Below are positions 32,766 to 33,068 of a stretch of 35,580 nucleotides of DNA, piece by piece. Each line of letters begins with the position of its first letter. The stretch's first letter is position 1. The notes under the pieces were generated by a model, which worked only from the letters and a program-made list of their open reading frames with translations, searched no databases and was not told the origin of the DNA. Made by a program: the position numbers and the translations under genes. Source of the stretch: a virus; UHGV virus genome UHGV-0000037; one strand, given 5' to 3'.

Positions 32766-33068
32766 ATGACACGGAACACCATACTCACCCGCACCGCCCT
32801 CTACCGTCTGGCCCTGCAGCGTTTCGGGCCGGACGCACAGGCCCTGAAACTGGCAGAAGAGGCCGCTGAACTGGCGGCCAGTGCTGCCCGCAACCTGAAC
32901 GGACAGGGCAGCGAAAGTGACCTCGCGGCAGAGCTGGCAGACGTGGAAATCATGACAGAGCAGTTGCGCCTTCAGGGGATGGACCGGCTGATTGACTTCC
33001 ACAAACAGAAAAAACTGGAACGCCTTGCCGCACGGCTGGGCGTCACATACACCGGAGAAATCATATGA
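32766..33068 (+). CDS. Small all-alpha MazG-like NTP-pyrophosphohydrolase-like protein (tentative)
   Basis: 100 aa; paired acidic helices ...KLAEEAAELAA... and ...LAAELADVEIM... resemble the MazG/HisE EExxE...ExxD pattern. Confidence 0.4.
   Translation: MTRNTILTRTALYRLALQRFGPDAQALKLAEEAAELAASAARNLNGQGSESDLAAELADVEIMTEQLRLQGMDRLIDFHKQKKLERLAARLGVTYTGEII

Follow-up and report, generated by a model that had tools for sequence, protein, structure and literature searches.

The 35,580-nucleotide genome of UHGV virus UHGV-0000037, whose full length is referred to here as the window, carries at 32766..33068 on the + strand a gene that probably encodes a small, single-domain, all-alpha nucleoside triphosphate (NTP) pyrophosphohydrolase of the MazG/HisE/dimeric dUTPase superfamily. 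The product would be of the minimal Sulfolobus-MazG/HisE type and have a role in the nucleotide pool. The open reading frame (ORF) runs from an ATG at 32766 to a TGA at 33066-33068 and specifies 100 residues plus stop (MTRNTILTRTALYRLALQRFGPDAQALKLAEEAAELAASAARNLNGQGSESDLAAELADVEIMTEQLRLQGMDRLIDFHKQKKLERLAARLGVTYTGEII). An initial annotation of the DNA had proposed a MazG/HisE-like protein at this position, and the two segments it quoted, KLAEEAAELAA and LAAELADVEIM, are present in the translation exactly as given.

Profile searches place the protein in a phage pyrophosphohydrolase family

Judged by a full-length profile match, the protein is a direct member of phrog_2245: this PHROG profile, named "nucleoside triphosphate pyrophosphohydrolase", aligned with residues 1-97 (E=3.9e-34, 119 bits). 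A close-family profile run against 1.84 billion cluster representatives retrieved 10,601 proteins at E<=0.001, with 2,209 reaching E<=1e-10; the majority are 90-110 residues long. Two samples of relatives were analysed, 79 diverse sequences for conservation and 196 for motif spacing. The phrog_2245 profile was matched by 79/79 of the former and phrog_4856 by 19/79; the Pfam MazG model PF03819 was reached at E<=0.01 by 15/79 (best 2.2e-5), and the MazG-like model PF12643 and PRA-PH were matched by 3/79 each. As far as sequence goes, the link to the curated MazG models is transitive, running through relatives, and not direct.

When a trimmed 68-sequence family profile (alignment A3) was searched against PDB sequences, mainly MazG proteins were retrieved, all of them marginally: Bacillus MazG (5ie9) at E=0.0098, iMazG (2q73/2q5z) at 0.05-0.09, YpjD (2gta) at 0.28 and SsMazG (1vmg) at 0.46. 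The acidic residues of the family align with the motifs of all these proteins, and in the printed A3 alignments the EExxEL and EExADV blocks fall on EEMGEL (5ie9) or EEVGEL (iMazG) and on EELGDV/EELYDV. The best A3 match in the PDB was a non-MazG entry, 3zta, the N-terminal helical domain of a STAS-domain protein (E=0.0018, residues 9-76). Its stretch EIAD.V.IM..Q resembles the ADVEIMxEQ block of the family, which may be a chance similarity.

A family label already exists in PHROGs, GenBank and the Prokaryotic Genome Annotation Pipeline (PGAP). PGAP calls an Escherichia coli homologue with 97% identity (WP_001573931.1) a "nucleoside triphosphate pyrophosphohydrolase family protein" and gives the name "hypothetical protein" to WP_097751728.1, the orthologue from E. 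coli CE0011b that differs by one residue. One JGI record names a homologue "NTP pyrophosphatase (non-canonical NTP hydrolase)". The present member is uncharacterised, and there is nothing surprising in it unless its substrate is a signalling nucleotide. Searches of the literature found no described MazG in Mu-like or BcepMu-like coliphages.

C-terminal extensions of 60-80 residues are found on the relatives P0013, P0033, P0034 (169 residues), P0057 (180 residues) and L011:2480-2968 (162 residues), and in P0096 (239 residues) the domain is duplicated in tandem, as it is in E. coli MazG.

The acidic residues are conserved and match a magnesium-ligand pattern

The protein contains the pattern EExxE-x20-ExxD. 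Its first acidic motif, E31-E32-A-A-E35 (EExxE; 32856..32870, + strand), lies on helix 22-44, and its second, E56-L-A-D59 (ExxD; 32931..32942, + strand), at the start of helix 50-90; both hold predicted Mg2+ ligands. Conservation is high at E31 (78/79 relatives), E32 (75/79), E35 (76/79), E56 (77/79), A58 (79/79) and D59 (77/79), so that each of the five acidic residues is present in at least 95% of the sample (at least 75 of the 79). The full motif is carried by 178/196 relatives, with the 20-residue spacing as the mode (126/178). This arrangement matches the Mg2+ site of Mycobacterium tuberculosis MazG (Mtb-MazG), which consists of Glu119, Glu122, Glu138 and Asp141 in the order Glu-x-x-Glu...Glu-x-x-Asp, and the activity of that enzyme requires both metal and dimer (PMC10014863). 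The metal-binding acidic residues of the superfamily are thus found in the sequence on two helices, one with EExxE and the other with ExxD, in keeping with the two acidic helices of the initial annotation.

Conservation extends beyond the putative metal site. Directly after ExxD comes a family-specific stretch, V60-E61-I62-M63-x-E65-Q66 (32943..32963, + strand), kept at V60 in 72/79, E61 in 69/79, I62 in 76/79, M63 in 76/79, E65 in 63/79 and Q66 in 78/79 relatives. F20(W)-G21 ... Q25 (32823..32840, + strand) marks a kink between a short N-terminal helix and the helix of the first motif, with an aromatic residue at position 20 in 78/79, G21 in 78/79 and Q25 in 79/79. A basic cluster of K80, K83 and R86-L87 (33003..33026, + strand) occupies the C-terminal half of the second long helix (K80 68/79, K83 76/79, R86 75/79, L87 78/79); by analogy, K80, K83 and R86 are possible phosphate contacts.

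The bare acidic motif was rejected as evidence, as it recurs by chance in the window. Among stop-free segments of at least 60 residues, the window contains four instances of ExxE-x(12-28)-ExxD; the stricter EExxE form is present twice, including once in Gam. Since the bare motif is prone to chance, it is conservation, profile and fold that carry the argument.

Structure prediction supports a MazG/HisE-type fold

AlphaFold2 models of the monomer were obtained with a close-family alignment (predicted local distance difference test score, pLDDT, 86.9; helices 9-20, 22-44 and 50-91) and with the 79-sequence alignment (pLDDT 95.5; predicted template modelling score, pTM, 0.81; helices 9-44 and 50-90). 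In both, a long helix at 9-44, with a kink near G21, forms a hairpin with a second long helix at 50-90, which agrees with the earlier description of an all-helical protein. This is the all-alpha fold on a pair of long antiparallel helices that defines the superfamily. MazG/HisE-type entries made up 12 of the first 14 structural matches for the first model, which included HisE (3c90, 1yvw, 6j22, 7bgm), AF1178, AF_0060 and RS21-C6/DCTPP1, and also E. coli MazG, iMazG, YpjD, DR2231 and a Thermotoga MazG-related protein. The models therefore support a predicted fold of MazG/HisE type. An unrelated helical bundle lacking the acidic cluster was not seen: the prediction is of a MazG/HisE-like fold, and relatives keep the acidic residues. 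The MazG/HisE-like assignment made earlier gains support from the phrog_2245 match, from the relatives that reach PF03819 and from the alignment of the acidic residues with solved MazG proteins.

Several results weigh against the assignment. The only models of Pfam and NCBIfam to touch the protein were PRA-PH (PF01503; E=0.035, 14.9 bits with a cut-off of 21.3) and the HisE-type TIGR03188 (E=0.034, 14.4 bits with a cut-off of 42.7), and none of the curated models PF03819, PF12643, PF01503 and dUTPase_2 was reached at its own threshold by the protein itself. Searches of PDB sequences with the protein and its close family returned nothing significant, and hhalign comparisons of the family profiles with single MazG sequences were likewise not significant. 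All Foldseek E-values were at least 0.59, none significant, in a list led by DCTPP1 and the HisE domain of HISN2. A metal-binding arrangement of the acidic cluster in space, and the oligomer, are inferred. One relative, P0041, has AD..E and N in place of EE..E and D, and searches of the literature found no enzymatic data for any member of the subfamily.

The shortfall against the curated MazG/HisE models would also speak for an alternative in which the protein is a non-catalytic helical hairpin built on a MazG scaffold and serves as a nucleotide sponge or sensor, or as a binder of host or phage proteins. The extra invariant residues outside the classical motif (Q25, A58, E61 and E65-Q66) could mark such a different binding function, and dead pyrophosphatase folds act as signal sensors elsewhere: KomB of the Kongming system has a HAM1 fold and is a signal sensor that has lost its catalytic residue (bioRxiv 10.1101/2024.12.20.629578). 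In the present family, by contrast, the four classical metal ligands and E31 are at least 95% conserved over thousands of sequences, which is the usual signature of retained catalysis. We consider a non-catalytic role very improbable and retain the enzymatic one.

The open reading frame is a gene under purifying selection

The ratio of nonsynonymous to synonymous substitution rates (dN/dS) of the gene is 0.14 in comparison with Escherichia phage PhiKM and 0.20 in comparison with Klebsiella phage KP12 (dS about 1.0), and the gene is under purifying selection. Its 56 close homologues come from Escherichia, Klebsiella, Citrobacter, Salmonella, Enterobacter, Dickeya, Proteus, Erwinia and Yersinia, and the region is present in 621 of 5,426 complete E. 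coli genomes.

These data refute the possibility that the frame is a non-functional ORF that arose by chance and owes its acidic motif only to a composition rich in alanine and glutamate. The four chance occurrences of the bare motif in the window would speak for such an origin, as would the long antisense ORFs that overlap the region: two of these on the - strand, 32972..34291 (439 residues) and 32592..33113 (173 residues), run opposite five early genes. Neither they nor a third ORF on that strand, 32801..32953, matched a Pfam or PHROG family. Because of this lack of matches and the purifying selection on the + frame, the long antisense ORFs look like shadow ORFs. The dN/dS values, the 56 close and more than 10,000 distant homologues, a position kept in 33 species and the confident fold prediction all stand against a chance ORF, leaving it next to no probability.

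Two database records of the gene deserve comment. QPLR01000268.1, a 572-bp contig of the Halobellus sp. Atlit-31R assembly, holds a 77%-identical copy followed by a DUF2786 gene, and is almost certainly enterobacterial contamination of a haloarchaeal assembly. OM835952.1 (Klebsiella phage KP12 clone KP12_2, 34.9 kb) is filed under Vequintavirinae; in it, genes for a Mu-type transposase and Gam, the MazG-like gene and mor-like genes follow one another in the order of the window. It is probably a transposable prophage that was co-purified, and does not belong to a Vequintavirinae genome.

The gene has a conserved position in the early operon of transposable prophages

The nearest isolated phage is Escherichia phage PhiKM (95.8% nucleotide identity), classified as a Bcepmuvirus. 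This classification fits the layout of the window, in which late genes occupy 624..23776 on the - strand and early genes 27501..35580 on the + strand, with the early operon reading outward. In its entirety the window resembles a complete transposable prophage of BcepMu type. Upstream of the MazG-like gene lie genes for a MuA-like transposase (28419..30188) and a MuB/ExeA-like protein (30160..31365) and, in the same operon, a Mu Gam-like gene (31665..32195, + strand; PF07352, E=8.8e-41). Downstream are a DUF2786/DUF7168 gene (33653..34336, + strand) of the function-unknown family phrog_421, the gene for GemA (gp16; 34719..35210, + strand; PF06252, E=2.3e-40) and, after gemA, mor (35182..35580, + strand), the last two also named from PGAP entries for their orthologues. 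The gene therefore does lie between gam and gemA, where it had been placed initially. A consensus scan of 31300-35580 found promoter-like or terminator-like sites no more often than expected from shuffled sequence, and since no such signal rises above chance in this interval, the arrangement fits a single early transcript carrying the transposase, MuB, gam, 32766..33068, gemA and mor. The window ends exactly at the mor stop codon (35580); in E. coli CE0011b, the mor orthologue is followed about 160 nt on by a truncated emrA, the end of the prophage.

At close range, the MazG-like gene is one of a series of small, translationally coupled genes, a conclusion based on overlaps at both of its ends. 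A Shine-Dalgarno-like GAGGG, read from the sequence at 32755..32759 (+ strand), 6 nt before the ATG, overlaps the TGA of the upstream ORF (32754-32756), and the stop codon shares bases with the start of the next ORF (ATATGA).

Synteny was assessed in 50 loci from one-genome-per-species contigs. In 33/50 loci, gemA and mor homologues lay downstream of the MazG-like gene and shared its strand, a position kept in 33 Enterobacterales species, and in 22 of these loci MuA/MuB homologues also lay upstream of it. The conserved synteny extends to a second, more divergent clade (42-48% identity). Small ORFs around the gene, of 90, 127, 71 and 76 residues, come and go among loci, and the most regularly kept neighbour between it and gemA in related prophages is the DUF2786 plus DUF7168 gene.

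On the upstream side, a 64-residue Zn-ribbon-like ORF (CxxC...CxxC, phrog_3401; 32293..32487) is followed by the 90-residue ORF (32484..32756). In some enterobacterial genomes (proteins P0032 and P0042) the Zn-ribbon-like ORF is called as an in-frame fusion with the MazG-like protein (153-166 residues). KP12 lacks the 90-residue ORF, and its Zn-ribbon-like and MazG-like genes share 4 nt. The fusion could be an effect of gene calling or of a frameshift, or could hint at a functional pair.

On the downstream side, the 127-residue ORF at 33065..33448 (+ strand) matched the PADLOC model PDLC02890, labelled "DpdH", over its full 127-position profile (E=1.4e-88). The same ORF shares about 58% identity with the C-terminal portion of proteins from Stx and lambdoid phages that belong to the ead/Ea22-like family (phrog_18739, phrog_250), and it occurs in the same arrangement in only 6 of the 621 matching E. 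coli genomes. A connection with 7-deazaguanine (Dpd) systems through this ORF was rejected: DpdH is part of a BrxC-like factor (DpdHI/BrxC), which we take to be a large ATPase, and the ORF corresponds to an Ea22-like C-terminal domain. The PADLOC label looks like a database artefact.

A nucleotide-pool function is favoured over an attack on signalling nucleotides

A model of the protein's action can be proposed from its relatives. Each chain would form a hairpin of two long helices and, by analogy with solved relatives, chains would pair into a dimer or tetramer. As in the wider family, Mg2+ would be bound by E32 and E35 (with E31) on one helix and by E56 and D59 on the other, and the alpha-beta phosphoanhydride bond of an NTP-like substrate would be cut to give a nucleoside monophosphate and pyrophosphate. 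Transcribed in the early operon with the transposase, MuB, gam, gemA and mor, the enzyme would act during replication by transposition and may condition the nucleotide pool for phage DNA synthesis, either by removing non-canonical deoxynucleoside triphosphates (dNTPs; house-cleaning) or by skewing the pool.

By analogy, such a nucleotide-pool role serving phage DNA synthesis is most likely the function of the gene. It is favoured because the position is kept across transposable prophages and because relatives in unrelated phages sit in replication or recombination modules. Homologues in the four isolated phages that were checked lie in early or replication modules. That of Cellulophaga phage phi10:1 (gp030), annotated in GenBank as MazG-like (cd11539), is located between DNA methylase and DnaA/primase genes, and that of Clostridium phage phiCT19406B among RecE, RecT and DnaD genes. 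A central member of the family, P0081, is 33-49% identical to homologues from Cellulophaga, Flavobacterium, Clostridium, Xanthomonas, Stenotrophomonas and Aeromonas phages.

The main competing explanation shares the fold and differs in the substrate, which would be guanosine tetra- or pentaphosphate, (p)ppGpp, or another linear signalling nucleotide. The protein would then be a host-takeover or counter-defence factor similar to Atd1, keeping the host out of the stringent response, or blocking abortive infection, while the phage transposes. A takeover or anti-defence role had been suggested in the initial annotation as well; the present results do not support it but leave it some probability. 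The location of the gene is suggestive in this respect, as host-interaction genes of transposable phages lie in the accessory early region (in Mu, the semi-essential early genes). A precedent exists in Atd1 of Pectobacterium phage PcCB7V, whose MazG-like catalytic domain cleaves ppGpp; the protein counters the toxicity of TIR-STING and retron-TIR and so blunts TIR-dependent abortive infection (bioRxiv 10.1101/2022.06.09.495361). QQG33500.1 (86 residues, L007:2104-2364) is probably Atd1, as judged from its annotation and its position two genes from a nucleotidyltransferase (NTase) gene, and it is of the same size class as the 100-residue protein, with F-G, EExxEL and ExxD in the same order. The similarity between the two is however not significant (BLASTP E=0.23-0.34; hhalign E=0.16), and does not establish a sequence relationship to Atd1. 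No NTase or other recognised anti-defence gene was found adjoining the MazG-like ORF, and relatives in other phages are located within replication modules. Moreover, the MazG fold does not predict (p)ppGpp as a substrate: a cyanophage MazG, in work ascribed to Rihtman et al. in 2019, reportedly did not hydrolyse it in vitro. We consider an alarmone substrate unlikely.

A more specific form of this idea also appears distinctly unlikely. Here the protein would be a dedicated counter-defence or takeover enzyme that destroys (p)ppGpp or an immune signal in the form of a linear nucleotide, for instance a non-canonical (d)NTP messenger, and would shield replicative transposition from abortive infection, with VEIMxEQ and Q25 marking an undescribed MazG specificity. 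No PADLOC defence-system model matched the 100-residue protein, and in the literature we found no MazG that counters the deoxyinosine triphosphate (dITP) signalling of Kongming.

The pyrophosphatase assignment matters for annotation. Most genes in the semi-essential early region of Mu-type phages have yet to be annotated, and one conserved gene within it is now a probable nucleotide pyrophosphatase. Most RefSeq copies are still named "hypothetical protein". The assignment also offers a concrete enzyme that is cheap to test, and it points to a large MazG subfamily of about 10,600 cluster representatives. If the enzyme is a house-cleaning dNTPase, it would be an ordinary auxiliary replication gene; if its substrate is an alarmone or immune nucleotide, it would provide a second, widespread example beside the single precedent of Atd1. 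The gene is common, conserved in a poorly understood phage region and easy to test.

Comparison with known systems

The closest known parallels are the minimal single-domain MazG proteins (SSO3215 1vmg, 5ie9, YpjD 2gta, iMazG 2q5z/2q73 and AF1178 4qgp), which likewise have about 85-110 residues and an all-alpha fold, and whose acidic residues align with EExxE...ExxD in profile searches. Sequence similarity to them is marginal (E=0.0098 to 0.46). Unlike them, the 100-residue protein is phage-borne, and its family has an invariant alanine before the aspartate (E-x-A-D) together with the conserved VEIMxEQ extension. E-x-A-D is a feature of HisE. HisE (PF01503; 3c90, 1yvw, 6j22) is also the source of the only Pfam and NCBIfam models that touch the protein (E=0.035 and 0.034). 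Identity with HisE was rejected, given 14.4 bits where the equivalog cut-off is 42.7 and a setting of Mu-type early neighbours with no histidine-biosynthesis context.

E. coli MazG (b2781, 263 residues, downstream of relA-mazEF) is a tandem two-domain protein of a chromosomal stress operon and differs in this from the single 100-residue domain of the prophage, which is not a MazG of the E. coli tandem type; the hhalign comparison with it was not significant (E=0.06-0.07). The probable Atd1 resembles the 100-residue protein as a small single domain of MazG type, and differs in its setting near an NTase gene of a lytic Vequintavirinae phage. With the phage "NTP-PPase" proteins of phrog_2245 the relationship is one of direct family membership by profile, and their annotations are themselves based on homology. 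Within that family, the enterobacterial clade to which the gene belongs is specific to Mu-like early operons.
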